64,000 nucleotides of DNA from a virus, in the IMG/VR virus record IMGVR_UViG_3300006793_000015, positions 1 to 64,000 of that record. One strand, 5' to 3'. The notes below the pieces were generated by a model that worked only from the letters and a program-made list of their open reading frames with translations, made no database searches and had not been told where the DNA came from. A program made the position numbers and the translations under genes. Positions 7,859 to 34,882 of the stretch are shown piece by piece. How positions within the stretch are numbered: the first letter of the stretch is position 1; every line of letters begins with the position of its first letter.

Positions 7859-7864
7859 GTAAAT

Positions 7865-8776
7865 ATGACTAAAGTTTCAGACATAAATTTTAACACAGAC
7901 GAAAACTATGTAAAGTATTTGGATCATGGCTTTGTCGGTCTCGTTGATACAATGGGATCTGACAATGCGATAGTCCAAGCTGCGAGAGTGTCATATGGTG
8001 ACGGCACCAAAGGCACTAGTAATGATAGGGCATTAATACGCTATCTAGTTAAGCACCGACACACATCACCGCTCGAGATGTGCGAGGTAAAATTCCATTT
8101 AAAGATGCCCATCTTTGTTATGAGGCAACACGTTAGGCATAGAACAGCAAACTTGAACGAATATTCTGGCAGATATAGTATTATGTCGGATGAGTTTTAC
8201 GTTCCTGATAAAGAAAACCTTAAACCACAAAGTTCAATCAACAAACAGGGAAGAGATGGTAAATTACTTCCAGTTGAAGAAACGATGTGCCATAATACTA
8301 TTAAACGAATTGGTAGAGAAAACTACAATGATTATTTAAGTTTATTGGGAGAACACCCAAATGACAATTATAACATTGAAGAAGATCAACGTCAAGGTTT
8401 GTCAAGAGAGTTGGCCCGTGCCGTGTTGCCTCTTAATAACTATACAGAACTATATTGGAAAATAGATTTAAACAACTTTTTCCACTACGTTAAATTAAGA
8501 GCAGATTATCACGCACAATGGGAAATACAAGAATTAGCAAGATCAATGTATAGTTTAATTCAAGATAAGTTTCCTTTGTCGTGTGAAGCATATGAAGATT
8601 TTATTGAAAACGCTCATACTGCTAGTCGTATGGAAGTTGATCTAATAAACAGATTAATTGATAAAAAGCGATGGAATGAACTAGTAGAGGATTGGAGAAC
8701 TGAAGAAGCAGTGGCAGAGCAGTACGGCATGTCCAAACGTGATCTCAATGAGTTTAAGCAAAAATGGAGTCTTTAA
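7865..8776 (+). CDS. thyX: Flavin-dependent thymidylate synthase
   Basis: IVQAARVSY, HTSPLE, RHRTANLNEYSGRY (RHRx7S), ELARAVLP, HAQWEI motifs. Confidence 0.95.
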   Translation: MTKVSDINFNTDENYVKYLDHGFVGLVDTMGSDNAIVQAARVSYGDGTKGTSNDRALIRYLVKHRHTSPLEMCEVKFHLKMPIFVMRQHVRHRTANLNEYSGRYSIMSDEFYVPDKENLKPQSSINKQGRDGKLLPVEETMCHNTIKRIGRENYNDYLSLLGEHPNDNYNIEEDQRQGLSRELARAVLPLNNYTELYWKIDLNNFFHYVKLRADYHAQWEIQELARSMYSLIQDKFPLSCEAYEDFIENAHTASRMEVDLINRLIDKKRWNELVEDWRTEEAVAEQYGMSKRDLNEFKQKWSL

Positions 8777-9363
8777 AAAATGAAGGGAAATCTATTCTAG
8801 CACTTAGTCCACATCCGGACGACGCGGAGTTAGGAGCAGGTGGGTTCATTTTAAATGAACTTTCTAAGAAAGGCTTTGTTAAAATTGTTTACTTTTATAA
8901 AGAAAAAGTAACAAGTGTAACTGAAAACTCTTCTAAATTAAATTACTCGTACGAATTCTTCTCAGACTCTGAAACTCGACCAGTATTAAATAACAATAGT
9001 GTGGCCCGATTAGATGATATTATCTATGGTAAAGAGCAATATGATTATATGTTAATACCACATTACGGCGACAGTCACCAAGACCATAAAATTGTAAACG
9101 AGTTAGCAATTGCAAGTAGTCGTAAGTTTACAGGCACTATATTGCAATATGAAATCAGTGCTTATATAAACAATAACAAATCTTATAATCCAAATGTATT
9201 CGTTGGAATGGATAACATTCAAGACAAATTGGATTGGTGCAATTCATACTGGGACGTTGACGACAAAATATTAGAATCAACTCGCGCACTTGCTATATTA
9301 CGTAGTGCTAATACAAATTACCCTTATGCAGAAAGTTTTGAATTACTAAGATGCACATTGTAA
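8764..9363 (+). CDS. PIG-L/LmbE family N-deacetylase
   Basis: SPHPDDAELG and DSHQDH metal-binding motifs, terminal AESF. Confidence 0.85.
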   Translation: MESLKNEGKSILALSPHPDDAELGAGGFILNELSKKGFVKIVYFYKEKVTSVTENSSKLNYSYEFFSDSETRPVLNNNSVARLDDIIYGKEQYDYMLIPHYGDSHQDHKIVNELAIASSRKFTGTILQYEISAYINNNKSYNPNVFVGMDNIQDKLDWCNSYWDVDDKILESTRALAILRSANTNYPYAESFELLRCTL

Positions 9364-10415
9364 AAGCAAATAATCTTAACAGGTTATGGAATGAAATAAG
9401 AGATGAAGTTCAAAGAACTTCTGATTTATCTTTGTCTAATGGTATATGCCAAGGTGGTGAAATAACCAAATTGGCCGAGGCAAGATTAGAAGTAGTAACT
9501 AATAGTAAATTACACAATGCGGTAATCTTCCATAGTTGTACAGACGCGCTAACGCAAGGCTTGCGTAATTTAAATTTGCCTGCTGGCAGTGAGGTTCTTG
9601 TACCTGCTTATACGTTTATCGCAACTGCAACAAGTATTTTACTTGCGGGATTAAAACCTGTCTTTGTTGATGTTGGTAATGATTATTGCATTGATTTATC
9701 TGACGCCAAAGAAAAAATTACAAACAATACAAGAGTAATGTTATATGTTACATTGTGGGGTAATTCAATGAACAAATACGCTAAAACTTTTTGTGACGAA
9801 AATAATCTCTTGTTAGTGGAAGATGCGGCGCAAAGTCTAGGAGCACTATTAAATGATGCTGAATTTACTGTTTTAAGTTTTAGTCCTTCAAAACCCTGTA
9901 CTACAATGGGAAGTGGTGGCGCATTAATTACAAAAAATAAAGATGTATTTGAATTAGCCAGGTTAGGAAGATTACACGGTAAATCCAATAACTCAACACC
10001 TAGTATAGGATTAGGCGTAAACAGTATGATTAGCAGTACTGAGGCGGCTACATTATATATTACATTAGGCCTAATGAAAAAACACCAATCTAAACGACAG
10101 AAAATTGCTAATATATATAAACAAGAACTTAGAGACTTATATGAGTTTCCAGACTATACACAAGATTGCACGTATAGTAAGTTTGTAATTAAGTGTGACA
10201 AGAGAGACGAACTGGCACAGCACCTTAGATCTAATAATATTCAAACACAAATCCACTACAGTATTTTGCCTATTCAAGAAAAAATATTTGATGTAAATTA
10301 TAGTGATTTTAAGAATAGTTTAACGTTGCAAGAAAAAAGTTTAACAATACCAAACTGTCCCTATATGACAGATGATGAAATAGAAAGAGTTTTAGAATGT
10401 CTAAAAAAATTTTAA
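9351..10415 (+). CDS. DegT/DnrJ/EryC1/StrS PLP-dependent sugar aminotransferase
   Basis: VPAYTFIAT, PVFVDV, EDAAQS, SFSPSK (PLP lysine) then GSGG. Confidence 0.9.
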   Translation: MHIVKANNLNRLWNEIRDEVQRTSDLSLSNGICQGGEITKLAEARLEVVTNSKLHNAVIFHSCTDALTQGLRNLNLPAGSEVLVPAYTFIATATSILLAGLKPVFVDVGNDYCIDLSDAKEKITNNTRVMLYVTLWGNSMNKYAKTFCDENNLLLVEDAAQSLGALLNDAEFTVLSFSPSKPCTTMGSGGALITKNKDVFELARLGRLHGKSNNSTPSIGLGVNSMISSTEAATLYITLGLMKKHQSKRQKIANIYKQELRDLYEFPDYTQDCTYSKFVIKCDKRDELAQHLRSNNIQTQIHYSILPIQEKIFDVNYSDFKNSLTLQEKSLTIPNCPYMTDDEIERVLECLKKF

Positions 10416-11392
10416 TATTAGGAGGCCATGGCTTTATTGGCTCACATACCAGTAACATACTTCGCAAACAAGGCCATATTGTGGGCGTAGTAGATTGTTA
10501 TCATCAGTATTATATTTTTCCTGATGATGAATATCAATGTATACTGAATCAGAGACAAGAACATGCAAATGCAGATCATGTATTTGTTGGAAAGATTGAA
10601 GATGTTAATTTTATGGCATCTGTTTTTGCAGAATTTCAACCAGACGTGGTTATTCACTTAGCAACTTACCCCAATGCGTATATGGTAAAACGTAATGTAG
10701 TTGATGCTACTGGAAATATGATTACAGCGACAGCAACAACATTAGACTTATGCACAGAACACAATGTAGAAAAGATTGTATTTTCCAGCAGTAGTATGGT
10801 ATATGGTAACTTCGAAAGTGATGCACCTGATGAAAATAGTAAAACAGATCCTAAAACTTTGTATGGAAGTTATAAACTACAAGGTGAACGCATGTGTCAA
10901 ATTTGGCACAGGGAAAAAGAATTAAATTATACAATACTTCGTCCTAGTGCTTTATACGGAACTAGAGATATGATTGTTAGAGTAATTAGTAAGATGGCAG
11001 AAAGTTCATTAACTAATGGTAATATTCGTGTTCAAGGTCCTGACAATAAGTTAGATTTTAGTTGGGTTACTGATGTTGCTGATGCGTTTGCTGTATGTGC
11101 CACTAACGAGACTACCACTAACGAAATTTTTAATTGTACGCGAGGCAATGGAAGAACTATCTTAGAAGCAGCTACTATGATCCAGCAAAGACTGGGTGGT
11201 GACATAGAAATTTATCCGCACGACAGTTTTTATCCTAACAGAGATACATTAAACAGTAATAAGTTAAAAGAGTTTACTGGTTGGAACCCTACTGAAGATA
11301 TTGATGCTGGAATTCCAAATTATTTAGATTGGCTCTTAGAGCAACCGTTTATTAAAACGCTTCCTCGGTATCAAGAGGTAATGGATCAGTAA
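10397..11392 (+). CDS. NAD-dependent nucleotide-sugar epimerase/dehydratase (extended SDR)
   Basis: GGHGFIG, VIHLA, SSSMVYG, YGSYK (YxxxK). Confidence 0.9.
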   Translation: MSKKILILGGHGFIGSHTSNILRKQGHIVGVVDCYHQYYIFPDDEYQCILNQRQEHANADHVFVGKIEDVNFMASVFAEFQPDVVIHLATYPNAYMVKRNVVDATGNMITATATTLDLCTEHNVEKIVFSSSSMVYGNFESDAPDENSKTDPKTLYGSYKLQGERMCQIWHREKELNYTILRPSALYGTRDMIVRVISKMAESSLTNGNIRVQGPDNKLDFSWVTDVADAFAVCATNETTTNEIFNCTRGNGRTILEAATMIQQRLGGDIEIYPHDSFYPNRDTLNSNKLKEFTGWNPTEDIDAGIPNYLDWLLEQPFIKTLPRYQEVMDQ

Positions 11393-14387
11393 TACTATTG
11401 TAGCGTTCTTCAAAGTAAGACTTTAACCACGGCCAGTCATAACTATTTAATAAAGCACTATACTGGCCTTCTTCTTGAGCATAGTATTCCAAAGCATCGT
11501 TTGCTCCTGCTAAACACCATTCAGCATTTAATCCTTCTGCAACAGTACACCATGTTTTAAGCCGGAAGGCAATTTCTGGTCTAGGATCACCTAGATCAAC
11601 TTCACGTTTAAGTTTTAAAACTTCACGGAAAGCACTTCTCCATGTTACCCATGGATCTTCGTTAAATCTACTAATACTAGCAACAACTGGTATAGTGTCA
11701 TGATTACTACTAAGAGTAAAGTCTAATCCAGGTTTAGTATCTAAAGTTAATTGTTTATGATACATGTTAATATTCATTGCCCCGTATTCTAATCCGTTTA
11801 ACGGATTTCGACTATGTAACATGTAATGTTTAGTTTCCTCAAGGTAATTAGGATTTAAATCAAATTTAAAATCCGGCAATACTTCGGTTTTTGCAAAAAC
11901 AGCATAAAACCAATCTGTTTCACTTAACCGTGCGGCGGCTTGATAGGCTTGCGTTCTACCATCTACACCATCACTACGTAATAAACGGTTTTCACACCCG
12001 TTTTGTTTATGTATATTTACAAGGTGTTTCCAGTTTTCGTTGGCGTTTTTTTCGCCATTTGAAATAAACACTATATCTAGTGGTTTATCCTCACATTTAA
12101 AGCCATCATGACGCAAGATATATGGGTAGTCATATAATTGAGTCCGAAATTCACTTTTACAGTCCCGCGGCACCAAGGATACACTACCACTTGTGTTAAA
12201 AACGTGAAGTTCTGGCTTTTTCCAGAAAGGAGGGTCATATGTTACCGGAGACTGGTTATTGTGCAGTATCCATCCATACATAGTATCTAAATCTTGTAAA
12301 CTTTTAATTGTTGGCCAACTACACCGAGGAACACTGACGTCTTTAATATAGTTTACAGTGTCAAACCATCCTAACACTTTTAAACTTTCTAATTGTTCTT
12401 TAAATAGTTTTACTGGAACGAGGAAAGTATCTCCTTCAACTTGTCCGTTACTCGGAAATACATGCAACATATTCTGTTGCCACGGCTCTGGTTCCCATCC
12501 AAAATCAAAACTAGTATAATCACAAATACTACCACATACCCATATATATTCTTCGTCTGTTCGTTCAACGATCCGTTTAAGAGTATCTAACCATGTTCCA
12601 AAGAATCTTGCTTTCTTATAATTTAAATTGGGTGAGAATTCTTCGTTATTTCCAAAGTCAACGTACCATATTTCTCGATTATCATCAAATAATTCTACTT
12701 GTTGATCCTCTACGAAGTTTAAATTATAAACATCCTCAATATTCTCTGCCCAATCAAACGTGCGAATAAAGTCGTCTGCATTTACTAAAAATGTGTTGCT
12801 CCATTTGTTCCATTTACTGCCAAATACGTGTAGCATACCATTCTGCCATGGTTCGCAATGCCAATCAAAGTTAAAATTTGAGTAATCGTTTTCGCTTGAT
12901 ACCGCCCAGAATCGCCCTGTCTTGCATTTCTTAGCACACCGCAGTAGTGTATCGCGGGTATCCCCAAAGAAGCGCGTCTTGAGCGTCTGAGAGTGTTTCG
13001 TCACTAGTGAATCATAGCGTTTTGTACTAGCAGAGCCCCCTTTGTCTATATAGAAGATATCCAAGGTGCTATTCGCTACTACCCTTTGATCTCCCACAAA
13101 ATTCAAGTGGTTATTGCCTTTTAAATAGGCAGGAGCATTTACGTAGAATGTTTGGCTATGCTTTTGCCATTGGGATCCAAACACATGAACATATTCCATT
13201 TGGCTTGCATCCGGATGCCAACTAAAGTCAAACTCCTTATAATCCATCTCCGGATTCAATGCCCAAAAGCGTTCAGTAGGATGTTCGTTTATTAAATTCT
13301 CTAATGTTGTTTCAATATTGTAACGCGGTAATGTATCGCTTTTACTTGTTACACGTTGGTCCGTTACGTAGTTTACTTTTGGATTAGCATCATTGCCATT
13401 GTAGTAAAACGTTTTACTAGTCTTTTGCCATTGTGATCCAAATACGTGCTTAAAGTCTTTTTGTGATTCTTCCGGATGCCAACTAAAGTCAAATGTGCTG
13501 TAATCTGCTTCACTGTCTGTATGCCAATGTTCTGTAGTGGGCAACGCTTTTGCTTGCGGGGTATCTATATAACTTGTTTCAGTCGCACCTTCTACTTTAT
13601 ATACTGGACCTCCGTCTTTCTGCCATTGTGTGCCAAATACATATATGTATGGTGGATCATCTGGGTCTGGTAACCAACTAAAATCAAAACTATCTTCGTC
13701 TATATTCTTAGGAATAATCCAATCTTCTTTATTAGGTAACGGCCTAATAACTTGGTCACTTACATATTTTTTAGGTGCATCATTATTTGTAATGTATAAT
13801 ACGTTACTGTTTCGTTGCCATAAGGAAGGAAAAACATATGTCCAATCACCGTGTGAGGGATCAGGATGCCAACTAAAGTCAAAATTATCTGTATCAACGC
13901 CTTTGGGTATTTGCCAATTATCTAAACAGTTTGTTCTTTTTGTTATTTGGTCAGAAACATATTTTTTAGGCGCACTTGGATTAGTAACATAATAAGTACC
14001 ACCTTCTTTTTGCCACTGGGAAGGAAATGCGTGTGTGTATTCTTTATTTAGACTATCCGGATGCCAACTAAAGTCAAAATCTGTATAGTCAGTATTATCC
14101 TCAAGTACCCAATTTCTTGTAGTTGGTACTCTCGTTACCTTTTTTGTATTATGGAATTTTAATTCGCCTTCAGGACTTTGTTTGTTGACTAATCTTATTC
14201 CGCCGTCACGTTGCCATTTACTTGGGAAGATATGTACGAACTGGGACTCCCATGGTACAGGAACCCAATTGAAATCAAACCCAGTATAATCAACACCATG
14301 ATCAACGTACCAAAAATATCTCGTTTTACATTTGCTGGCTGCTTCGTAAATATCATTGACGTCATCCCTGCTTATAATATCATACAT
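11352..14387 (-). CDS. 1011-aa repeat protein with C-terminal glycosyltransferase-like domain
   Basis: Eight FDFxWxP...HxF(P/G)SxWQ units; C-domain (DIVFISNGE...GLEYG...WRSAFREVLKL) resembles the 31262-32203 protein. Confidence 0.7.
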   Translation of the reverse strand: MYDIISRDDVNDIYEAASKCKTRYFWYVDHGVDYTGFDFNWVPVPWESQFVHIFPSKWQRDGGIRLVNKQSPEGELKFHNTKKVTRVPTTRNWVLEDNTDYTDFDFSWHPDSLNKEYTHAFPSQWQKEGGTYYVTNPSAPKKYVSDQITKRTNCLDNWQIPKGVDTDNFDFSWHPDPSHGDWTYVFPSLWQRNSNVLYITNNDAPKKYVSDQVIRPLPNKEDWIIPKNIDEDSFDFSWLPDPDDPPYIYVFGTQWQKDGGPVYKVEGATETSYIDTPQAKALPTTEHWHTDSEADYSTFDFSWHPEESQKDFKHVFGSQWQKTSKTFYYNGNDANPKVNYVTDQRVTSKSDTLPRYNIETTLENLINEHPTERFWALNPEMDYKEFDFSWHPDASQMEYVHVFGSQWQKHSQTFYVNAPAYLKGNNHLNFVGDQRVVANSTLDIFYIDKGGSASTKRYDSLVTKHSQTLKTRFFGDTRDTLLRCAKKCKTGRFWAVSSENDYSNFNFDWHCEPWQNGMLHVFGSKWNKWSNTFLVNADDFIRTFDWAENIEDVYNLNFVEDQQVELFDDNREIWYVDFGNNEEFSPNLNYKKARFFGTWLDTLKRIVERTDEEYIWVCGSICDYTSFDFGWEPEPWQQNMLHVFPSNGQVEGDTFLVPVKLFKEQLESLKVLGWFDTVNYIKDVSVPRCSWPTIKSLQDLDTMYGWILHNNQSPVTYDPPFWKKPELHVFNTSGSVSLVPRDCKSEFRTQLYDYPYILRHDGFKCEDKPLDIVFISNGEKNANENWKHLVNIHKQNGCENRLLRSDGVDGRTQAYQAAARLSETDWFYAVFAKTEVLPDFKFDLNPNYLEETKHYMLHSRNPLNGLEYGAMNINMYHKQLTLDTKPGLDFTLSSNHDTIPVVASISRFNEDPWVTWRSAFREVLKLKREVDLGDPRPEIAFRLKTWCTVAEGLNAEWCLAGANDALEYYAQEEGQYSALLNSYDWPWLKSYFEERYNSITDPLPLDTEEAF
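13213..14078. repeat. Four exact 20-nt intragenic direct repeats GGATGCCAACTAAAGTCAAA
   Basis: Copies at 13213, 13474, 13864, 14059; encode FDFSWHP on - strand; spacings 261/390/195 are all multiples of 3. Confidence 0.9.
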
Positions 14388-14957
14388 TTAGTTTGCTAAT
14401 TCAGGATAAAAAACTTTCTGTTGTAAATTAAATACTCTCCAAATATTTAAGCAGTAACTTTCTAAATCTGTGTTATCTAGCATTTCTGTGATGTGAGAAT
14501 AGTTACTAATTGTTTTTTTATAATATTCGGAACCGCGCATTATATAATTAGTATTTAACTCTTTCTTTACCATGGTATCATATAATATGAACTGAAACGA
14601 ATACTTCGCCGCTAGCGGTATCATGTCATCTGTAAAGGCTTTTAAATATTGACACGCTCTTGCTATATGATCTGCGGCAATTTCATGTGGTTCGTATACC
14701 TCGAGTGGTCTATTTACGTGCCCAACATCATAGCCGTTTCTCCATGCATTTTGCATAGAGTACATATTTGAGATAAGTTGATCACGTGGAGAACGCACTA
14801 ATATTATTAAATGCTTGCCCTTTTCGTCATACAGTTCTTTTGCTGTGGACGCTTCATGCTTAAACTCGCACTCCTCTCCTTTGCTTTTTAAATAACTTTG
14901 GAGTAAGTGATTACCACTTCGCTTTGCACCGTATATTACTATTGTATTCTTTTCCAT
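14388..14957 (-). CDS. Sulfotransferase-like P-loop protein
   Basis: 5'-PSB-like GAKRSGNHLL and 3'-PB-like LVRSPRDQLIS motifs. Confidence 0.6.
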   Translation of the reverse strand: MEKNTIVIYGAKRSGNHLLQSYLKSKGEECEFKHEASTAKELYDEKGKHLIILVRSPRDQLISNMYSMQNAWRNGYDVGHVNRPLEVYEPHEIAADHIARACQYLKAFTDDMIPLAAKYSFQFILYDTMVKKELNTNYIMRGSEYYKKTISNYSHITEMLDNTDLESYCLNIWRVFNLQQKVFYPELAN

Positions 14958-14958
14958 A

Positions 14959-16059
14959 TTAACTACTTATTCTAATTCCATTCTTTCTGTCAACTAAGTT
15001 AGGATATCCCTTTATCTGTTCGCTATATTCTATCATCCACTGCTTATAACGTTGAGTATTCTTTATTAAAGAAGTTATCTTATACCACTCTATCACTGTG
15101 TTTTTTGTACAGAATACATCAAAAATTTTTTTATTTCCAAACACTGTTTGGAAATTAGTCATAAGTTTAATGTTATCTTCGTTAACCCAGTAGTTTTCGT
15201 AATTGTGCAAATCTAACGGAAATATTCCTCCCCATCGAGAAGAATTATCAGTATCCAACTCCTGTCCCTCATGCCCATTATCAGTAAACATGCGATCAGC
15301 ACTAAACCCAGCCAATACAATGTTCTCAGAAAAAATATTTTTTATACATGTGTCAACATTTGGTGCAAATTCTCCACCATCATAATGCGTTTTGTTATCA
15401 ATTATAATTTTAAACTCTGATTTATCATATCGTGTGTGTATACGCTTTCTTTTCTTAACTAAAGCAAAATCAGGTTCGTATATTGGATAACATTGGTAAT
15501 TAATAACGTCAACTGTGACGCCATTTTTTAAACATACGCAATGTAAAAAACCACTATCAATACCTTCAGACAGTAACAATGTTAACGAGCCTTTTTTTCT
15601 CAATTGTGTTACTGTCTGTACTACAGACTCGGATAATAAGTTAAAATCTTCTTTTGTTGCCCCACTACTATAATTCTCAAAAAAGTTAATTGATCTTTTT
15701 AGATTTAGATCGTTGTCATAAACTTGTATACTGTTAGACGGAAGTGGTGCAGTATTAGTTATAGGGGCTGTAGTAATATGAGAATCTGACATATATAAGA
15801 ATTGCATTAGACTAAAGTCTGTTACTGTAAGACAAAATGATTCTGTTTTCCACACTAATGCAAATTGGCCGTCTAAACTCTTAATTGCTTCTATACACTG
15901 ATCAACATTATCATTCAATAAACTTAATAAATCTTCAATTTCATTCTTTAGATTTAACAAAATACCAGTAAAATGTAAAAATCCATAATTATTGTGTCCA
16001 GACGAATTGACATCAGGATGCTGATTATTGTAGAGTATTTCCATCATGTCCGCAATCAA
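14959..16059 (-). CDS. Degenerate asparagine synthetase B-like ATP-dependent amide ligase
   Basis: LDGQFALV, PP-loop-like LLSEGIDS, VLAGFSAD; no N-terminal catalytic Cys. Confidence 0.55.
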   Translation of the reverse strand: MIADMMEILYNNQHPDVNSSGHNNYGFLHFTGILLNLKNEIEDLLSLLNDNVDQCIEAIKSLDGQFALVWKTESFCLTVTDFSLMQFLYMSDSHITTAPITNTAPLPSNSIQVYDNDLNLKRSINFFENYSSGATKEDFNLLSESVVQTVTQLRKKGSLTLLLSEGIDSGFLHCVCLKNGVTVDVINYQCYPIYEPDFALVKKRKRIHTRYDKSEFKIIIDNKTHYDGGEFAPNVDTCIKNIFSENIVLAGFSADRMFTDNGHEGQELDTDNSSRWGGIFPLDLHNYENYWVNEDNIKLMTNFQTVFGNKKIFDVFCTKNTVIEWYKITSLIKNTQRYKQWMIEYSEQIKGYPNLVDRKNGIRISS

Positions 16060-16760
16060 ACAAAGTCATTGCCAAAAATATTATCTACGACCCATCCGTA
16101 GAGTGGCGTTTCAAACTTAAACTTCCATATACCGTTTAGATTTAAACAAGAACTATTTGGCACATGGTGCATTAATTTATTATCGTATACGTACAAGTAG
16201 TCGTTATTGGAATGTTCTTTAATAAAGTTTATATCAGCGGTTGCATCATAATACATTTTGTTTCCTTTAATAACATAGCCAGAGTCAGTAATAAAGACAC
16301 CACTATATTCAATAAATTCGTTATTTGTATGGTCAAACACTTTTGGTTTATTATACTTTACGTGATTGTGTCTATAGTTTAATAGTTTATAATCATCAAC
16401 AATAAAGTTATTATTATTCATTTGCTCTAAAATATAGTAAGAATTATTAGTGCAATCCATATAACAATGGCCGCGTCTGTGAATTAAATCATTTAAATCA
16501 ACACCGTTGATGTACAGACTTTTTATGTCAATACCAAAATCACCATTTAAATAATCTTGTGGGTAAACTGCGTTAGTGTGCTCTAGTTCTAGAACATAAG
16601 AGTTGGGTTCATAGTCATGAATATCTACAGTGTATGAGATGTCGTCTAACTTTGTTATAGGTAATTGATTATCGTTACTGTCAATTACAGAAACATTTAA
16701 ATCAGGTTTCTTATCTAAATTACAACTATAATCCACACCTATCTTAAATTCAATAGACAT
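16056..16760 (-). CDS. Hypothetical protein
   Basis: 234-aa ORF, 4-nt overlap with downstream gene. Confidence 0.65.
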   Translation of the reverse strand: MSIEFKIGVDYSCNLDKKPDLNVSVIDSNDNQLPITKLDDISYTVDIHDYEPNSYVLELEHTNAVYPQDYLNGDFGIDIKSLYINGVDLNDLIHRRGHCYMDCTNNSYYILEQMNNNNFIVDDYKLLNYRHNHVKYNKPKVFDHTNNEFIEYSGVFITDSGYVIKGNKMYYDATADINFIKEHSNNDYLYVYDNKLMHHVPNSSCLNLNGIWKFKFETPLYGWVVDNIFGNDFV

Positions 16761-16779
16761 TCGCTTCCCGCTCGTTGAT

Positions 16780-16809
16780 TTAAGTAGGAAATTCCACTAA
16801 CCTACTTAA
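16780..16809. other. Intergenic inverted repeat (9-bp stem, 12-nt loop)
   Basis: TTAAGTAGG 16780-16788 / CCTACTTAA 16801-16809, in the only large gap of the cluster. Confidence 0.55.
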
Positions 16810-16879: not shown

Positions 16880-18502
16880 TTATTTTGTTGGCGGGGGTGG
16901 CGCTTTAGCCATTGTGAATACTTTTATACCGTATGCTTCTTCAAAGCGTTTTGCGTCTTGAAAATTATTTACTACCGGCTCTCCCCTAATGTTTAAACTG
17001 GTATTAAGTAACATAGGACAGCCTGTGTAATATTCCCACATTTTTAATAAACTTCTTATCTCAGGATTATCATTAGGACCTACAGTTTGAACTCTGCTGG
17101 TGCCATCTGCGTGAACTATGGCAGGGAAGTCTTTTGGGTGTTTACACTTTGCTGTATATTGCATATAAGGTGAGCTAAGTTTTGTTCTGTTACGAAATAA
17201 CTTTATACCGTGTAATACCACGTAATCAGAATTGTCTGGATTGGGCGTAAATTCAAATGTTGCGGGCATTTCAAAGTATTCGTCTGCTTTCTCTTCTAGT
17301 ATCATTGGAGCAAATGGACGAAACTTTTGTCTACGCTTTATCTCATTTACCTTGTCTTTGATATGTTTCCCACGCGGATCTGCTAACAAACTTCTATTAC
17401 CTAAGGCGCGTGGTCCAAACTCTGCTCTACCGTTAGCAACACCTACGATATTACCCTCTAATAATTCTTTTAACAACTCTACTTCAGGGTATTGACCTGG
17501 TATGTTATATCCTAAATATGGACTCTCCCACCTTAACCTCTTACCGTATGCTAATGCGGCGGCTCCTAAACTACTACCAGCATCGCCCGGGTTAGGCATA
17601 ATCCAAATGTCGCTCCAATTTTTCGCTATCTTTGAATTAGCGACACAATTTAATGCAACTCCACCCATGTAAACTAAGTTTTTAGACTTACAACTTATCC
17701 TTGCATGGGCCATAATATGCCCTACAACAAACTCTAATACTTGTTGAGATGAAGCGGCAATATCATAATTGTCTTGTTCTTCCATCAACTCGTCGGAGCG
17801 CCAGCCTGTTCCAGCGTGTAAGTTTTCTTTCATGCGTATAATATTCTTACCATTAATATCCCAAAACGTATCCATCAAATCTTTTGTATACATTGGTAAC
17901 CCATATGCCGCCATTCCCATTAAGATATATTCTTCGTCTAATGGGCGCAGGCCTACGCGATCAGTCATAGCACTATAAAATAAACCAATACTGTTTGGAT
18001 ACTTTGCGCCCCACACTTTCTTATATTGTGCTTTGCCGTTTCTGTCATACTCTGCATCCCATATGGTAATGGTATCCCATTCTCCTATTGCATCAATGAC
18101 CACTACAGTTGCATCAGCAAATGGGCTTGTTTGAAACCCGGCGGCCGCATGGGATAAGTGATGCCCGTAGTATTTAAATTTACAGTTTTTCCCCACAACG
18201 CAATTAGTTTGTTCTTGTAACTGCTTGCGTATGTTAATATTATCTAAATCAAAAAAGTCTGCCCACTGCCCAGAATATGCTTGGCGAGTTTTCTTAAGCC
18301 AGGGATTTTCGTAGTATGCGACTATTTCTAAAGGACTATTACTAAAACTTAAAGCATCTTTTATTAGGCCGGGGTTTAAATTCTTATCGTGTTTTTTCTT
18401 ACTGTAACGTTCAGCATGTCCTGCAAAAAGTATAATGCCGTCGTTGTCAATTAAGCTAGCTGCGGCGTCATGAAATCCGTAACTTACTCCCAATATTGTC
18501 AT
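16880..18502 (-). CDS. O-carbamoyltransferase, NodU/CmcH/TobZ family
   Basis: HDAAA, HHLSHAA, DAIGE, GGVALNC, EFGPRALGNRSLLADPR, RPFAP, LLNTSLN. Confidence 0.95.
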   Translation of the reverse strand: MTILGVSYGFHDAAASLIDNDGIILFAGHAERYSKKKHDKNLNPGLIKDALSFSNSPLEIVAYYENPWLKKTRQAYSGQWADFFDLDNINIRKQLQEQTNCVVGKNCKFKYYGHHLSHAAAGFQTSPFADATVVVIDAIGEWDTITIWDAEYDRNGKAQYKKVWGAKYPNSIGLFYSAMTDRVGLRPLDEEYILMGMAAYGLPMYTKDLMDTFWDINGKNIIRMKENLHAGTGWRSDELMEEQDNYDIAASSQQVLEFVVGHIMAHARISCKSKNLVYMGGVALNCVANSKIAKNWSDIWIMPNPGDAGSSLGAAALAYGKRLRWESPYLGYNIPGQYPEVELLKELLEGNIVGVANGRAEFGPRALGNRSLLADPRGKHIKDKVNEIKRRQKFRPFAPMILEEKADEYFEMPATFEFTPNPDNSDYVVLHGIKLFRNRTKLSSPYMQYTAKCKHPKDFPAIVHADGTSRVQTVGPNDNPEIRSLLKMWEYYTGCPMLLNTSLNIRGEPVVNNFQDAKRFEEAYGIKVFTMAKAPPPPTK

Positions 18503-28803: not shown

Positions 28804-29823
28804 TTAGAACCTCATTACTGTTTCTTCGTTAATTTCTGTTGATTTGCACTTTAATTTGCATATATCTAACTTGGGAATATTGGCTATAAACTGTGTCCAA
28901 TAATTAGTGTTTAAAACGGACTCTAATCCACTTTGTTTTATATTTTTATCTTCTGTTTGCCACTCTGCGTATGCTTTATCATTATATCTATCTATAATCC
29001 AACAGCACGGATAAAAATACCCTCTGCTGTCTACAAACAACCCCTTTGTGCCTATAAAACAATACGGGGTTATATCTCCAATTGGTGTTTGCTTTTTATA
29101 TATTTCTCTTGCTGTCTTAAAACTGTCGTCGTATATTTTTCTATCAGTAAAACGTATTGTATTACTTTCGTATCTACCAGACTCACTAATATATTCTTTA
29201 ATAGGATCTAAAGAATCGTCGTAGTGCTCGTAAAAGAAATTAAACTTATTACTTTTAGTTTGTCGCATTGCATCGAAGCCTAATTCCTGTGCAAGATTTA
29301 CCATATGGTCTACGTGTTTATAATTAAAAGAAAAATAAATCATATCCCACACTAGTCGTACGGGACCAATACGCAATGTTTCTATTCCTTCTATTATACT
29401 ATTCCAATTACTGTTTACTCTATACTTCTCATTGCTTTCTTGATCATAGCCATCTAAACTAAAATGAATTTGGTCGTATTTGTTTAAGGTTTTTCCTAAC
29501 TCTAACCACCAGTCAGTTTTTTTATAACTACCATTGGTTACAATATTTAACTCTACTTTTTGATTATTACTTTTAAAGTATTCGCATATTTCTATAAATT
29601 CTTTGTTGTAAATTGGGTCGCCGTCATAGCCACAAAAAGTAACTCTTTTCGTTTCTTGTAAAATATCTTTAGTAAAGTTTTCTTTAAAAAAATTTAAATC
29701 TAAATTATCTATTACTAATGTTTCTGGTTTTTCTGTTCTAGAGCAACGCGGACACTTTAATGTACAAGCACTTGTAAGTTCAAAATGCCAATGCCATAAT
29801 GGCCAGTTAAAGTCATTTCTCAT
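28804..29823 (-). CDS. Radical SAM enzyme with C-terminal SPASM/twitch domain (#2)
   Basis: CTLKCPRC near N-terminus; GYDGDP; C-terminal C..VDSRGYFYPCC..CKLKC. Confidence 0.88.
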   Translation of the reverse strand: MRNDFNWPLWHWHFELTSACTLKCPRCSRTEKPETLVIDNLDLNFFKENFTKDILQETKRVTFCGYDGDPIYNKEFIEICEYFKSNNQKVELNIVTNGSYKKTDWWLELGKTLNKYDQIHFSLDGYDQESNEKYRVNSNWNSIIEGIETLRIGPVRLVWDMIYFSFNYKHVDHMVNLAQELGFDAMRQTKSNKFNFFYEHYDDSLDPIKEYISESGRYESNTIRFTDRKIYDDSFKTAREIYKKQTPIGDITPYCFIGTKGLFVDSRGYFYPCCWIIDRYNDKAYAEWQTEDKNIKQSGLESVLNTNYWTQFIANIPKLDICKLKCKSTEINEETVMRF

Positions 29824-31262
29824 GCCTGTGCTAACCTCTTACATTCTTTCCACCAATCTACCATCTCCGGGAAAGTTTCTAGGAAGTTTGTTCCTCTGCG
29901 TTTATCGTGTTCGTTAAAAAATCTATAAAAATCTGCTTTACAATCTCTTACATATTGCTCATCTAGTTTACTGCCTTCTTGCCACCATGCTAAATCTCGT
30001 TGCATACGTTGGACTTCATAATCCTTAAAACCTTTAAATCTTGTGCTTTCGTCCTCCATATTATCGAGCATCCAACATACATTATCATCATGAATCATTT
30101 GGTATGACTCTGGCAATAACTGTACGCTCTGCCAAGCTGGTTGCCTTAGTAGCGGAGTATCAAACCATATACGTTGATACGTATCACTATATGCTTGTCT
30201 TAATCCGTGTATTGCTGACAACAGTTTGTCTAAACCCGTTACACTCAAATTATTATACGTAATGATAAATGTAACACTGTTTCTATATGGAATCTCTGTT
30301 AAAAATCTATTGATGTTATTCCACATTCGATTAAAATCTAAGCCATTTCGTATATATTCTGCTTGCTCCATCCAACTATCAACACTAATGTACTGCATAA
30401 AGTGTTCTACTTTTTCATCTAAGCAAATGGGTTTAATCGCTTCAATATATTTGTCAAACAGTTTATCTTCCACAGAGAAGTTACTTGTTACGTTGAGGTG
30501 TAGGTCACTCTTTGGATTTGCGTTAATGTAATCAAATACTTTGTAAGTATTTTTATCCATCAAAGGTTCGCCGCCTGTCATTCTAAAGTGTTTTAAATCT
30601 TTATATAGATCAGGCCACCATTTCCAAAATGCTTCTACATATGGATTATATTGACTGTGGGGAATACAAGCACGGCTTCCTGTAAAGTGTTCAGGTGCGT
30701 TATGTGGAGTTTTAGTGGGCCATGCTCCAAATTGTTTTGTTTCCTTTTCCCACGACGTGCTAAATTGAGGTGAACAGTAACTACACTTTAGATTACAGTT
30801 ATGGTTAAAGTTAACCTCAACATAGCGTGGGTTCTTATCTGCATCCCATGGCGTGTTAAGTATAGTTTCAAAGTCCATATGTGCCCATGGTTCACCACTT
30901 CTGTAGTGCCTGTCGCTCATATGTCCTGTATCTTCTATGTTCCAACAGTACTGACATTCTTTTGGACGTTCGCCTTTGATCATCAATTTACGCATTTCTT
31001 TTTTGTGTTGCGTGTTGTGTAGTGCGGATGGATTTACTTTAACTGCTTCTGCATCCATTTTATGGAGTGGAGGATGATAGCAACTATTATTATATCCTGT
31101 TGGCAAATGTAAACTAACTTGGTTCCATTTAGCAAGACAAAAGGATGGCGAAACAGAGTCTAACTGCTCTTTAATATTTTCGGCACTTTTATAAAAGTCG
31201 GATTTAAATTTTCCGTCTTTTACTTCTACTTTGTCGCCCTTATTGTCTTTATATAGTTCCAT
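29820..31262 (-). CDS. Radical SAM enzyme, CxAKW..SCxHPP N-terminal subtype (#1)
   Basis: CNLKCSYC; TGGEP; CLAKW..SCYHPP..CQYC. Confidence 0.9.
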   Translation of the reverse strand: MELYKDNKGDKVEVKDGKFKSDFYKSAENIKEQLDSVSPSFCLAKWNQVSLHLPTGYNNSCYHPPLHKMDAEAVKVNPSALHNTQHKKEMRKLMIKGERPKECQYCWNIEDTGHMSDRHYRSGEPWAHMDFETILNTPWDADKNPRYVEVNFNHNCNLKCSYCSPQFSTSWEKETKQFGAWPTKTPHNAPEHFTGSRACIPHSQYNPYVEAFWKWWPDLYKDLKHFRMTGGEPLMDKNTYKVFDYINANPKSDLHLNVTSNFSVEDKLFDKYIEAIKPICLDEKVEHFMQYISVDSWMEQAEYIRNGLDFNRMWNNINRFLTEIPYRNSVTFIITYNNLSVTGLDKLLSAIHGLRQAYSDTYQRIWFDTPLLRQPAWQSVQLLPESYQMIHDDNVCWMLDNMEDESTRFKGFKDYEVQRMQRDLAWWQEGSKLDEQYVRDCKADFYRFFNEHDKRRGTNFLETFPEMVDWWKECKRLAQA

Positions 31263-32203
31263 TACCAGCCTTCAATTTGACGTATTACATCCAACTCTTG
31301 TATCATAATGTCGTAGTTAGTATGTGTGCTATAATGTGCTTTGAAAAACTTACTTGCTTCAGCATCCATTTCGCATATAGGCATACCTAGTTTGTTTTGT
31401 AGTATTTCGCCTAGTAACTTTGCTTCTTGTTCTGGATCCTTAGATGCGTATTCTGCGTTAAACATTTCTGTGAGATACTTAAAGTCTCTTACATTTACAT
31501 AGTTCCAGTCTGTAAGCATAGTTAAAAATGTGCCTAAACGTGCTCCATATATTGCCCAATTGCCGTGTTCAATATCGCGTCCAACAGTTTGCCAGATGCA
31601 TAGATTGTCGTAGTTACGTGCGTGAATTGCTTTTTCAAATGTGTCAAGATCAGGACGCTTGCCTTGGTCTAACACCATTTTGACGCCTTCTCTAAACCCT
31701 GCTCGCCATGCGTGTAATTCTGATCCATTTGGATATGTTGTGCTATAACAGTTATGCATTGCCTTGTAATTGTCATCAAAGCAAAATTCAACCAATGTTT
31801 CATCTCTGCCATCAGTGTTTTCATGTGACTTCATATTCATTACAAACTCAACTGGCCAACAACTTAACCCACCATTGCCATACATTAGTCCGTTTATAAT
31901 ATTGCGTCCTTTCCATCTAAAAACACAATCCTTTGTAGCGTCATCTATTGTAAGTTGCAGGTTAAAGAACTCCGGGTCAGGCATATTGTCTCCGTCGATT
32001 AAAACAAAACGTTCTGTGTCACTTGCCTCTGCCGCCGCTTTGTGTGCCGCATCGGATCCATAAACACCATCTACGTGTTTTGCCCACGGAACCATGTTAA
32101 GTATCTTAGCCCAAAACTCGTCCTTCTGTGGTTCATCATATGTTAAGTAGATGCAGTCTAAATCTGCCACATCAACTATCTCAGTCATTAAATGTTTCCT
32201 CAA
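31262..32203 (-). CDS. GT-A-like glycosyltransferase
   Basis: N-terminal DCIYLTYDE strand, AHKAAA helix, FVLIDGD (DxD). Confidence 0.55.
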   Translation of the reverse strand: MRKHLMTEIVDVADLDCIYLTYDEPQKDEFWAKILNMVPWAKHVDGVYGSDAAHKAAAEASDTERFVLIDGDNMPDPEFFNLQLTIDDATKDCVFRWKGRNIINGLMYGNGGLSCWPVEFVMNMKSHENTDGRDETLVEFCFDDNYKAMHNCYSTTYPNGSELHAWRAGFREGVKMVLDQGKRPDLDTFEKAIHARNYDNLCIWQTVGRDIEHGNWAIYGARLGTFLTMLTDWNYVNVRDFKYLTEMFNAEYASKDPEQEAKLLGEILQNKLGMPICEMDAEASKFFKAHYSTHTNYDIMIQELDVIRQIEGW

Positions 32204-32408
32204 ATAACTTTGCTTCTGTTGGACGCCTAAATGTTACTCTAACTCCATCAGCGTAAACTTTATCGTCTACTTTAAACTCACCTTTACAGTTTGTTTGGCA
32301 CCACTCTTTAACAGTCCTGTAAATTTTAACTGCTTCTTTAAATTCTTTGTTTTTAATTACTTCTCCTTGCTGTGCTTCCCAAGGATATTTTGCGTGTTTT
32401 GTTACCAT
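32181..32408 (-). CDS. Hypothetical protein
   Basis: 75 aa, AGGA RBS, overlaps downstream start. Confidence 0.6.
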   Translation of the reverse strand: MVTKHAKYPWEAQQGEVIKNKEFKEAVKIYRTVKEWCQTNCKGEFKVDDKVYADGVRVTFRRPTEAKLFEETFND

Positions 32409-32431: not shown

Positions 32432-32821
32432 TTATTGTAATTGATAATAACTTTCGTCTCTATTAAACATCACCTGATCTGGATCAATGACATGTTTAAT
32501 TAACCTATGATCCTTCTCTGTTACTAAAACTGGTTGACTATGATCTAACTCCGAAGCGTGTGTTACTTGTCTATACTTTGACGCTGAACTGCTATGTTTT
32601 TCTATAGGCTTTAACTTACCATCTTCGACAGTCCAGTCAGTGATAAAGTTATTCTCTGGCCAGTTCCATGGAACTTTTATATAACTTAATTCTTCTCTTT
32701 CTTCTGGCGATGCCTCGTATATTTTACCTGCATCATCATAGTATAAGCAATAGTCTGGCTTTTCCTTTTCACTATAGTCAAAGCCTTCCAATGCTTCTAA
32801 AAACTCATTAAGTCCTTTCAT
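32432..32821 (-). CDS. Hypothetical protein
   Basis: 129 aa, overlaps upstream stop. Confidence 0.65.
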   Translation of the reverse strand: MKGLNEFLEALEGFDYSEKEKPDYCLYYDDAGKIYEASPEEREELSYIKVPWNWPENNFITDWTVEDGKLKPIEKHSSSASKYRQVTHASELDHSQPVLVTEKDHRLIKHVIDPDQVMFNRDESYYQLQ

Positions 32822-33671
32822 AGTACTCTATTGTTTTATCAGCCAAGTACTCCTTACATTCAGCACCATGTACTGGATATATTTGTGGCTCAACACCAAT
32901 AAGTAGTCCAATGCTATCACTATAACTTATATTAACAACATCCTCTATCTTATGCTGTTCGGGCCACTCTAAAATGCTTGGCTTTAAATGTACAAACGTT
33001 GGATAATCCAATACGCTGTTAGTAGCAGTATACTCTTGCTCCTGTAATACTAACGCAATGGCTAACGCAACATCTGTTGTGGGTTTACTGTCTCTACAGT
33101 TTTTAATATTCTCTGTTACAGTATTCCAGTTCTTGTAAACCCATTTAAGTGTTTTAAACAGTTTTAAACTTTCCTCGCCGTAACGAAAATACATAAACCC
33201 ACTATACGCATTAGGCAGTTCGTTTTCATCAAATACTTTTCTGTATTTGCGCGATGTAGCAATGCTTCCATCTAACTTGCGAACGTTTGTAGCAATAAGC
33301 ACTTCCTGCTCACGCATAAACGTCCACCAGTGGTCAATGTTTCTCGTAAACACTAAGTCACAGTCTATCTTAACTGTTTCTTTAAATGGTGTTATTGCCC
33401 ACGCTTTCCACTCGTTACCTAACTTCCAACTATCTTCTTCGCTTTCATCTCCCCACGGTATGTCTATAACGTAGTCAAACACTTCGTGGTGCTTATCCTC
33501 TAAACACTGTTTAGTCGCTTCGTCTACTGCTACGGCAAATTTGTTTATACGTTGCGTTGCCTTTAAACTTAATCCACATGCGTAAGCAAGTTTTAAATAG
33601 TCTGTTGTCTCATTGTTTTGAACAAAAGTAAAATATCCTAGTTGTTCGTTGTGATCTTTAATTCTCTTCAT
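32808..33671 (-). CDS. GT-A-like glycosyltransferase (DxD)
   Basis: YLKLAY..SLK, TPFKETVKIDCD, YSGFMYF, TDVALA, FVHLK. Confidence 0.6.
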   Translation of the reverse strand: MKRIKDHNEQLGYFTFVQNNETTDYLKLAYACGLSLKATQRINKFAVAVDEATKQCLEDKHHEVFDYVIDIPWGDESEEDSWKLGNEWKAWAITPFKETVKIDCDLVFTRNIDHWWTFMREQEVLIATNVRKLDGSIATSRKYRKVFDENELPNAYSGFMYFRYGEESLKLFKTLKWVYKNWNTVTENIKNCRDSKPTTDVALAIALVLQEQEYTATNSVLDYPTFVHLKPSILEWPEQHKIEDVVNISYSDSIGLLIGVEPQIYPVHGAECKEYLADKTIEYYERT

Positions 33672-34497
33672 TTGGTGTATGGATTAAAGTAGGCTGTGTT
33701 GCATATCTTATAATACTATTAGCATGTTCGAGTATGCTATACTTGTTCATAATATGTAAATTAGCATTGCGTATCATCGATACTTCGTTGTCAAACTCAT
33801 AAACTACCATACCATCTTCTCTAACATCTGTTAAAGTATGCTGAGAAGGTAAAGTAAGGAGGGAGTTGTCGAAATAACCTTCTAAACTTAAAAGGTTATA
33901 TGCAATACTTATAGCATAATCGTTGCGGTATGGCCCTTTCTTGAAATTATATAGATTGTAATAATACATATAATTTTCTTTTACCGTACTCACTAAATCG
34001 AAAAATGTTTTAGCAGTTTCTCCTTTAGTAAAGTATAACACGGTTGCCCACAGCATGGGTATGCTACTCCAATGCAATAACTTATCATCAATAAAACTAT
34101 TCTTACCTGTTATATCAAACACATTCTTATGGCATACTAACTCTTCTTGTGTTTCGAATATTCCTTGCAACGAATTGTTAAACATTAGATAGTCTACATC
34201 TAATAGTAAAGTTTTTTGGAATGGAGACAATTCGTATGCTAATGGTCTAGTTTTATTGTGCCATGTAAGTTCTTCGACTTCTCCCTCGGGGTTTCTAAAC
34301 GTTCTTCTTCCGCTATTGCCAGCATCAATATGTATTACGTGGTCAAACGGTCCATCGACAGGATTGTTAGTAACTAACGCTATTCCTGTTCCTGGTAAAT
34401 GTTTGCGTACTAACAAAGCACAAATAATGGCGAGATTTGTGTAACTTATTGATTCGTTATCATACGCAAATAATAATACGCCTTTATCATCGGGCAT
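33658..34497 (-). CDS. GT-A-like glycosyltransferase (DxD), paralog of 32808-33671
   Basis: SPFQKTLLLDVDY, WATVLYF, RNDYAISIA, LHIMNK. Confidence 0.6.
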   Translation of the reverse strand: MPDDKGVLLFAYDNESISYTNLAIICALLVRKHLPGTGIALVTNNPVDGPFDHVIHIDAGNSGRRTFRNPEGEVEELTWHNKTRPLAYELSPFQKTLLLDVDYLMFNNSLQGIFETQEELVCHKNVFDITGKNSFIDDKLLHWSSIPMLWATVLYFTKGETAKTFFDLVSTVKENYMYYYNLYNFKKGPYRNDYAISIAYNLLSLEGYFDNSLLTLPSQHTLTDVREDGMVVYEFDNEVSMIRNANLHIMNKYSILEHANSIIRYATQPTLIHTPNEEN

Positions 34498-34847
34498 TAA
34501 ATTTGATCTGGTTTTCTAATTTGTCGAATTTTGTTTAGTTCGGCATAGTATTCGTTGGTTACTTCGTAATACCGTTGCCATAGTTTTTGTGTAAAGTCTA
34601 CTGGATCCTCAATTATAATTGGATTTTCAAATTGATCTAATACAACAGTTGGATTTGATTCTAAGTCATTTCGTTCAGCAATTTGTTGCCTTAAAGACAT
34701 TAGTTCGCAAAAACTAATTAATTCATAGGATACTTTGAATAAACCGCCGTTGTATGGGAGGGAGAGTAACCCCAAAGTGGTCTCACGCTTTGTTGCATGA
34801 GCCACTTTTTGGTTAAACTTTTTCTTTACAATTTCTTTTGCACTCAT
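34497..34847 (-). CDS. Hypothetical protein, first gene of the modification cluster
   Basis: Start at ATG 34847 (MSAKEIV), 6 nt after the -10 box; TAATG overlap with next gene. Confidence 0.7.
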   Translation of the reverse strand: MSAKEIVKKKFNQKVAHATKRETTLGLLSLPYNGGLFKVSYELISFCELMSLRQQIAERNDLESNPTVVLDQFENPIIIEDPVDFTQKLWQRYYEVTNEYYAELNKIRQIRKPDQI

Positions 34848-34853
34848 AGACTC

Positions 34854-34882
34854 ATTATATAACAAATGCTTCTAATTGTCAA
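34854..34882 (-). promoter_or_regulatory. Consensus sigma70 promoter heading the GT/radical SAM cluster (probably leaderless)
   Basis: Minus strand TTGACA (34882-34877), 17-nt spacer, TATAAT (34859-34854). Confidence 0.85.

Follow-up and report, generated by a model that had tools for sequence, protein, structure and literature searches.

In the first 64 kb of the 114-kb IMG/VR viral contig IMGVR_UViG_3300006793_000015 (the window; estimated completeness of the contig 32%, about one third of the genome), a minus-strand operon of glycosyltransferase (GT)-like and radical S-adenosylmethionine (SAM) enzymes lies directly behind the tail-fibre genes FIB512 and FIB303. Our leading, still tentative, reading is that this locus gives a marine giant T4-like phage a cytoplasmic pathway, independent of membranes, for glycosylation and glycan tailoring, and that its likeliest acceptors are the neighbouring fibre proteins. 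We prefer this reading because of the enzyme content, the genes for sugar-nucleotide supply, the solubility of the proteins and a gene slot that is shared with sugar enzymes in related loci. Virion proteins are a plausible target and are favoured because of the linkage to fibre genes, the fibre-like divergence of the two GT8-like enzymes and the precedent of phage XacN1. A first-pass annotation of the window had proposed that the phage builds and decorates a glycan, and the GT-A and GT8-type folds or profiles and the flanking nucleotide-sugar enzymes described below support that proposal. Its label of a new system was overstated, because GTs and radical SAM cassettes had already been noted in a fibre-linked hypervariable region of pelagimyophages, where they were read as modifiers of the host O-chain (PMC7029224), and another report had described 12 radical SAM genes in a single marine T4-like genome (PMC5332604).

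Enzymes encoded by the operon

The operon runs from 34865 (likely ATG at 34847) to 11352 and comprises 24 genes, 21 open reading frames (ORFs) of at least 80 amino acids (aa) and three small ones (Table 1). The ORF map bore out the compact arrangement described in the first pass: neighbouring genes abut or overlap by 1–37 nucleotides (nt), and the sole gap of more than 25 nt is an AT-rich stretch of 119 nt at 16761-16879. The cluster proteins are soluble, with no 19-residue hydrophobic segment typical of a transmembrane (TM) helix in any of them, and all are acidic except the carbamoyltransferase.

Three DxD GT-like proteins had been called, with the GT-A fold as the point to be checked, and the calls held, through a GT-A fold for GT313 and a GT8-type profile for GT287 and its paralog GT279. 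The AlphaFold2 model of GT313 (pLDDT 89) has a GT-A fold with a DxD motif, from which glycosyl transfer from a nucleotide sugar is predicted. Its structural matches in VIA, with Z scores from 9.7 to 7.5, included B4GALNT1 (9.7; root-mean-square deviation 3.1 over 139 residues), STIV A197 (9.4), WrtF (9.2), SunS and A64R of PBCV-1, and nucleotidyltransferases of the same fold matched it too (Z of about 8.5). In the viral structure library its sole strong relatives are long uncharacterised phage proteins. GT313 is the best-conserved gene of the module and belongs to a very large phage family of at least 8000 sequence clusters that has no Pfam model.

GT279 and GT287 are paralogs (hhalign E 1.6e-25, probability 99.7%). 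The motif of GT287 is (E/D)-x-D, of which the second Asp never varies and the acid ahead of it is Glu in most relatives and Asp here. The GT287 profile matches glycogenin-1 (GT8) at E 6e-4, over the first ~100 residues only, and in the ESM Atlas GT287 leads to PF03407/PF01501 clusters; the GT279 profile had no match in the PDB. Because neither protein matched a Pfam family at E 0.01 or better or reached the gathering threshold of PF01501 (CAZy GT8), we call them GT8-like and do not file them as members of GT8. All three GTs are acidic (pI 4.8-5.2; 5.15 for GT279) and have no TM or amphipathic segment. Single-sequence searches of the PDB with GT279, GT287, GT313 and the PP-loop and P-loop proteins of the distal cassette gave chance-level matches only.

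The seven radical SAM enzymes of the first-pass annotation were upheld by their NF033640 and Pfam scores. Six belong to the N-terminal-twitch family NF033640 (283.7, 361.7, 402.7, 408.7, 312.0 and 324.6 bits; cut-off 170), and the seventh, rs339, exceeds the gathering scores of both PF04055 (43.8 bits, cut-off 29.5) and PF13186 (25.2 bits, cut-off 21.5). The six N-twitch copies are old paralogs, 22-44% identical, and all of them keep C140/C144/C147 (CxxxCxxC), GGEP and C31/C50/C91/C94. They share the N-terminal four-Cys domain and the motifs of NF033640, and here they stand in an array. Pfam puts SPASM N-terminal of Radical_SAM in these proteins. An ESM Atlas search with rs480 returned generic SPASM clusters under 0.9 only, and the N-terminal extensions of longer forms in relatives contained no recognisable domain.

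The resemblance to sugar-acting radical SAM enzymes of the BtrN, BlsE and DesII type lies in the auxiliary-cluster domain, which aligns to the twitch domain of BtrN at E 2e-3, and in a weak core match to BlsE. The core matches are generic, to 8vpo, viperin, MoaA and BlsE, and weakly also to QueE, YydG and SkfB. As in aminoglycoside clusters, the phage enzymes sit amid aminotransferase, deacetylase, GT and carbamoyltransferase genes. Unlike in BtrN, however, the twitch domain is N-terminal and not C-terminal, and the genes lie in a phage structural region without cyclitol or nucleoside scaffold genes. A bacterial homolog in Nereida adjoins GT90 and GT2 genes.

Radical SAM-like genes were also seen elsewhere. 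Beyond the window, at 106350-108984 of the contig, three further ORFs (295, 262 and 321 aa) stand in a row, of which the 295-aa and 321-aa ORFs gave weak matches only (PF04055 41.6 bits at 106389-106706; NF033640 below cut-off at 106356-106703 and 108175-108504); relatives of these two are inserted into the main radical SAM array in some related loci (L017, L050 and L054). The cultured, KVP40-like Vibrio phage K566 (L009, record 161548-168284) has four distant N-twitch-type radical SAM genes, 21-27% identical, which do not lie beside fibre or GT313-type genes.

Conservation, cultured relatives and promoters

Related loci were collected with rs438 (15 loci) and with GT313 (80 kept of 491 relatives found). 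The order FIB512-FIB303-small ORF-GT279-GT287-small ORF-GT313 was present in all 77 loci with enough upstream DNA, and GT279 and GT287 were each present in 78/78. The small first gene o122 was recognisable by BLAST in 46/78, most of the others having an ORF of similar size in its place. Where the flank extends far enough, most loci have the giant protein (4927 aa in the window) and o223 ahead of the fibres; a few have other ORFs between or no recognisable match. In the other direction, rs480 was found in 60 of the 61 loci with at least 8 kb of downstream DNA. Behind it the tail varies: the series rs480>rs455>rs416/438>rs450 occurs in 32 of the 61 and another tail in 28, and the alternative tails carry UDP-glucose/GDP-mannose dehydrogenase, an NTP-transferase-kinase fusion, SDRs, SGNH proteins and other radical SAM enzymes. 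The gene rs339 turned up in just a few relatives. This is the pattern for which the first-pass annotation had suggested looking, a constant place beside the fibre genes and tailoring genes that vary.

The degree of divergence also differs along the locus. GT313 (median 59%, 78 loci), rs480, rs455, rs433 and the carbamoyltransferase are 56-61% identical among loci, the fibres 37-45%, and GT279, GT287 and o122 (median 27%) have diverged to 27-32%. Two contigs that carry the fibre-GT-radical SAM module, L035 and L036, had been binned into metagenome-assembled genomes of Neomarinimicrobiota and Pelagibacterales; they are phage DNA and not bacterial loci, and may have been mis-binned or hint at hosts. 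Near-identical DNA, for the whole stretch or part of it, is held by marine metagenomes (20 runs listed, from 13 studies).

Among cultured phages, Ralstonia phage RsoM2USA carries the core. There it consists, in the same order behind the fibre gene, of gp355 (fibre), gp354, gp353, gp352, gp351, gp350 (GT313, 38%), gp349 (rs480) and gp348, and a second set, SGNH-rs455 (52%)-SGNH-micropeptide-SGNH-carbamoyltransferase (45%), lies ~90 kb off. These module genes are hypothetical in the GenBank record, and the RsoM2USA paper makes no mention of radical SAM, carbamoyl or ORF350 (PMC8504454). The structural gene o223 is common to 93 cultured Rak2-like phages, and GT287 and GT313 were found only in RsoM2USA. 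The window also encodes a gp6-type baseplate wedge with 35% identity to the counterparts in Atu_ph07 and Rak2-like jumbo phages, together with the 4927-aa structural giant and fibre-like genes. Megablast searches with the operon and with gp6 found no matches among cultured phages. The jumbo phage XacN1, which falls in one clade with RsoM2USA, is reported to have at least two virion glycoproteins (PMC5852040, PMC8504454) and two unrelated GTs (PMC5852040); it has no homologs of GT287 and GT313.

In Agrobacterium phage Atu_ph07 (L124, record 116908-123646), three radical SAM genes of another type (gp171, gp168 and gp165) lie amid genes for unknown proteins. This operon sits behind the o223 and fibre homologs of that phage and has no recognisable homolog of GT279, GT287 or GT313. 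Radical SAM operons behind fibres may be more widespread in this lineage of jumbo phages.

The window contains four perfect TTGACA-N17-TATAAT sigma-70 sites, against 0.15 expected. Two of them end 6 nt and one 12 nt ahead of an ATG, which suggests that the phage makes leaderless or near-leaderless early mRNAs. A promoter-like site at the same position as that of the operon, its -10 box ending 5-7 nt ahead of the ATG, was present in 41 of 70 distinct related loci. The T4-late TATAAATA box occurs only four times in total: at 35938, 37580 and 37591, ahead of FIB512 and FIB303, and at 19540, inside the SGNH276 gene of the operon. Because the sigma-70 promoter is at o122 and the late boxes are at the fibre genes, we assign the operon an early-type start of its own, and no terminator was found between it and the late fibre genes. 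Pieces of fibre and radical SAM genes were present in four marine metatranscriptomes, and one contig, which is weak evidence, bridges a fibre gene into o122; these data are contigs only, they give no transcript ends, strand or timing, and the uncovered parts carry no meaning.

The proposed pathway and its rivals

In the pathway that we envisage, a fixed module (o122, the two GT8-like enzymes, o129, GT313 and rs480) that appears to be inherited together with the distal tail-fibre genes most likely puts a sugar on a soluble acceptor and starts its editing; the neighbouring fibre proteins would be the best candidate acceptors. Phosphomannomutase (PMM) and the PIG-L/DegT/SDR operon may supply unusual nucleotide-sugar donors. 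Each N-twitch radical SAM enzyme is predicted to have a fully Cys-ligated auxiliary-cluster domain like that of BtrN and, by analogy, might take hydrogen from sugar carbons, leading to oxidation, epimerisation, deoxygenation or C-C/C-O coupling. The variable tail would then diversify the sugar through the N-twitch enzymes, o361, the carbamoyltransferase with its SGNH proteins and micropeptide, and the methyltransferase-like, PP-loop and P-loop proteins. Expression would begin at the sigma-70 promoter before that of the late fibre genes and would probably go on by read-through from the late fibre promoters.

This proposal has parallels in known systems. Soluble GT-A enzymes beside structural genes are also a feature of the Che8-type GT genes, of PBCV-1 A64R and of the virion glycosylation of XacN1, and both A64R and the GT of mycobacteriophage Che8 are among the structural matches of GT313, at a generic GT-A level (Z 7.5; E ~1e-3). 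As in phage virion glycosylation systems generally, GT genes are physically linked to virion protein genes, in the 77 loci and in RsoM2USA. Unlike the present locus, those of Che8, PBCV-1 and XacN1 are without radical SAM enzymes. The 'host recognition cluster' of pelagimyophages (PMC7029224) is similar in being hypervariable and in joining tail-fibre genes, GT8-type GTs, lipopolysaccharide (LPS)-like sugar genes and radical SAM cassettes, although the fixed module, the N-twitch family and the carbamoylation set are not resolved in that account.

Several observations weigh against a fibre-directed glycan pathway. The two RsoM2USA sets lie ~90 kb apart, so the operon of the window is a fusion of modules that can also be separate. 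Fibres can be built without the module, since enterobacterial Rak2-like phages and XacN1 lack it but have the same o223/baseplate scaffold. The promoter of the operon is early-type, those of the fibre genes are T4-late. The best PDB sequence match of the radical SAM core is 8vpo, a peptide-modifying cyclopropyl synthase, the N-twitch homologs of Bacteroidota (Reichenbachiella, Ancylomarina) are lone genes with unrelated neighbours, and we know of no member of NF033640 with a known reaction. The Ser/Thr richness of FIB303 was considered as evidence for O-glycosylation and rejected, because it is spread evenly across a conserved region and is not a mucin-like glycosylated linker.

Remodelling of the host envelope, which we consider unlikely, has to be weighed because the promoter is early, the distribution of the module is accessory and GT8 enzymes commonly act on the LPS core. 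Here the soluble GTs and tailoring enzymes would alter precursors of the host LPS core, O-chain or capsule at the cytoplasmic face, and the effect would be to block superinfection by competing phages or to keep progeny from sticking to debris. A sigma-70 promoter suits an early function, the module is accessory within its structural clade, and PMM and amino-sugar enzymes are typical of O-antigen genes. GT8 is the classic LPS-core family, an argument made also for the pelagimyophages (PMC7029224). The first-pass annotation had argued for virion proteins from fibre adjacency, which holds in 77/77 loci, and from the missing flippase and polymerase, which is a weaker argument than was assumed there, because LPS-core GT8 enzymes work without such genes of the phage. 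On the other hand, peripheral membrane GTs are usually basic, whereas the three GTs of the operon are acidic and lack membrane-binding segments. No lipid-carrier transferase, flippase, polymerase, Gtr-type or acyltransferase membrane protein was seen among the cluster proteins, unlike in LPS/O-antigen conversion or Wzx/Wzy assembly, and remodelling of the envelope would leave the strict linkage to fibre genes unexplained.

It is improbable, in our view, that the radical SAM enzymes modify a protein directly, in the manner of peptides made on the ribosome and modified after translation (RiPPs), with the twitch enzymes epimerising, cross-linking or editing a fibre or structural protein and the GTs acting either on their own or on that protein too. 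Most SPASM and twitch enzymes mature peptides, the core match to 8vpo and the weak ones to YydG and SkfB point the same way, and the radical SAM operon of Atu_ph07 occupies the same place with no recognisable homolog of these GTs. However, Pfam searches matched neither a RiPP recognition element (RRE) domain nor a Cys-rich or leader-type precursor; the sole conserved micropeptide is basic, Cys-free and travels with the carbamoyltransferase, not with the radical SAM enzymes, which elsewhere share their slot with sugar-nucleotide enzymes. The synthesis of a diffusible small molecule during infection, aminoglycoside-, aminocyclitol- or nucleoside-like, is quite improbable. A BtrN-like twitch domain, a TobZ/NodU-type carbamoyltransferase, PIG-L, DegT and GTs do make up an aminoglycoside-like set, and similar cyanophage genes have been listed under 'antibiotic synthesis' (PMC12801897); yet no scaffold-forming enzyme (cyclitol synthase, non-ribosomal peptide synthetase or polyketide synthase) is among the annotated ORFs, no exporter is present, and neither the fixed fibre linkage nor the serotype-like variability of the tail would be explained.

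Hypermodification of phage DNA, nucleotides or tRNA by sugars and radical chemistry would account for the early-type promoter, the soluble GTs, the translational coupling of ThyX to the PIG-L/DegT/SDR genes and the weak matches of the radical SAM enzymes to the nucleotide-acting viperin, MoaA, QueE and BlsE. We regard it as highly improbable. ThyX makes ordinary dTMP, the fibre linkage is again unexplained, and no kinase or other known DNA-modification family is among the annotated ORFs of the window, to which that search was confined. The 114-kb contig contains no dUMP/dCMP hydroxymethylase (PF00303), a weak point given that the contig is ~32% of the genome.

Returning to the glycan pathway, a more specific version of it, which is somewhat unlikely, is that the N-twitch array performs undescribed radical chemistry on fibre-linked sugars and so creates a hypervariable glycan 'serotype', made by the phage, with which adsorption is tuned or the fibres are shielded. 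If true, the array would represent a novel class of enzymes that edit glycans, and host-range determination would gain a new layer in a very large group of giant phages from aquatic habitats; hundreds of uncultured giant phages, marine and freshwater, carry the module. Should the product decorate fibres, a chemical layer would be added to host recognition in abundant ocean viruses, and should it edit the host envelope or be a metabolite, the locus would be a new kind of auxiliary pathway. In either case, the defined genetic context of five to eight unexplored radical SAM enzymes makes them a rich source for new enzymology, and RsoM2USA offers a cultured entry point that makes the question bench-testable.

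Tailoring, donor-supply and neighbouring genes

The tailoring calls of the first-pass annotation fared unevenly. The carbamoyltransferase passed the cut-offs of both Pfam domains; against the NodU equivalog NF041651 it scored 135.4 bits, far under the cut-off of 1000. In having a two-domain carbamoyltransferase together with SGNH/GDSL-like proteins and a very small conserved peptide as partner, the set resembles saxitoxin sxtI/sxtJ/sxtK/sxtL and the NodU/TobZ class III enzymes. The micropeptide, which ends in ...DPFIYK (...RYRKRLKELKKRDPFIYK), is kept in at least 15 distinct loci, including RsoM2USA, beside SGNH and carbamoyltransferase genes, and had no Pfam match at E 0.01 or better. Both of the SGNH-like proteins are present, the second one below the Pfam cut-off (21.3 bits against 27). 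The methyltransferase, AsnB-like and sulfotransferase-like calls stay weak: the first of these ORFs is below the cut-off of its family and had no BLAST match in any locus surveyed, and the other two are likewise under Pfam cut-offs and had no PDB sequence match. The repeat/GT-like protein was confirmed as a 1011-aa protein with eight ~65-aa FDFxWxP repeats and a C-terminal domain homologous to GT313 (E 2e-10) that lacks the DxD. A nuclease-type Smr domain is unexpected in a sugar operon; the Smr protein is kept in nearer relatives.

The protein o361 is a predicted enzyme with 4503 homologs and no Pfam family. VIA aligned its model with cyclophilins (Z ~9) and with the Pictet-Spenglerases KslB and McbB (8.1 and 7.2), a middling match that tells little of function, and Foldseek found nothing in the PDB. 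For o122, no Pfam or PHROG match was obtained.

The plus-strand deacetylase-aminotransferase-epimerase trio and the nearby PMM, also part of the first-pass proposal, exceeded their Pfam cut-offs, as did ThyX, although PIG-L was matched over a short stretch. The contig contains no NTP_transferase (PF00483). ThyX and SDR are also neighbours in two related loci (L105 and L106), where they border the variable region.

Table 1. Positions of the genes, cassettes and promoters in the window.
Feature	Position	Strand	Remarks
PMM (phosphomannomutase), eukaryotic PMM type	4695..5408	+	PF03332 93 bits
Convergent early operon	7830..11392	+	promoter 7830-7858; all genes overlap
Perfect sigma-70 promoter	7830-7858	+	6 nt before thyX
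ThyX	7865-8776	+	
PIG-L-type deacetylase	8764-9363	+	38.3 bits, cut-off 28.2; match spans just the first 33 model positions
DegT aminotransferase	9351-10415	+	Pfam
SDR epimerase/dehydratase	10397-11392	+	Pfam
Distal cassette	11352..16760	-	behind the 119-nt AT-rich gap; o234, PP-loop, P-loop and 1011-aa proteins
P-loop sulfotransferase-like protein	14388-14957	-	19.6 bits, cut-off 27
PP-loop protein ('AsnB-like')	14959-16059	-	PP-loop SEGIDS motif and ThiI match at E 0.005 only
Carbamoylation set	16880..20281	-	two SGNH-like proteins, micropeptide, Smr protein, carbamoyltransferase
Carbamoyltransferase, NodU/TobZ type	16880-18502	-	PF02543 132.7 bits (cut-off 24), PF16861 175.6 bits (cut-off 27)
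SGNH-like protein (second)	18468-19148	-	weak match
Smr protein, 77 aa	19112-19345	-	PF01713
Micropeptide, 44 aa	19342-19476	-	basic, Cys-free
SGNH-like protein (SGNH276)	19451-20281	-	
o361, cyclophilin-like beta-barrel with helical insert (model)	20282..21367	-	many invariant His/Glu/Asp
Methyltransferase-like ORF	21386-22258	-	PF13489 19.7 bits, cut-off 27; cassette 21386..22319 with own promoter
Perfect sigma-70 promoter	22291-22319	-	ahead of methyltransferase-like cassette
rs433, N-terminal-twitch radical SAM	22240-23541	-	NF033640
rs450, N-terminal-twitch radical SAM	23538-24890	-	NF033640
rs416, N-terminal-twitch radical SAM	24887-26137	-	NF033640
rs438, N-terminal-twitch radical SAM	26127-27443	-	NF033640
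rs455, N-terminal-twitch radical SAM	27436-28803	-	NF033640
rs339, classic radical SAM with C-terminal SPASM	28804..29823	-	variable cassette
rs480, N-terminal-twitch radical SAM	29820..31262	-	NF033640 325 bits; almost always coupled to GT313
GT313, GT-A fold (residues 8-181) with helical C-domain	31262..32203	-	DGD motif at residues 70-72
75-aa ORF	32181..32408	-	kept only in nearer relatives
o129, small acidic protein	32432..32821	-	conserved slot between GT287 and GT313
GT287, GT8-like soluble glycosyltransferase	32808..33671	-	profile match to glycogenin-1
GT279, GT8-like soluble glycosyltransferase	33658..34497	-	invariant DxD (D100, D102), C-terminal H..K
o122, small conserved first gene	34497..34865	-	probable true start ATG 34847
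Perfect sigma-70 promoter	34854..34882	-	ends 6 nt before ATG 34847 of o122; leaderless-type operon start
FIB303	34893-35804	-	33% Ser+Thr
FIB512	35957-37495	-	tail-fibre PHROGs
o223	37642-38313	-	baseplate/structural in Rak2-like phages
Perfect sigma-70 promoter	63280-63308		

Directly upstream of o223 and the fibres, the 4927-aa ORF occupies 38331-53114 on the minus strand; its distant counterparts are gp180 of Atu_ph07 and gp361 of RsoM2USA, which exceeds 288 kDa and is a confirmed virion protein. At the other end of the window, an HNH endonuclease (phrog_1314) is encoded at 37-1341, and 1208-5408 on the plus strand holds mutually overlapping genes for an FG-GAP/VCBS-repeat protein (738 aa), a weakly N6/N4 DNA methylase-like protein (426 aa) and PMM.

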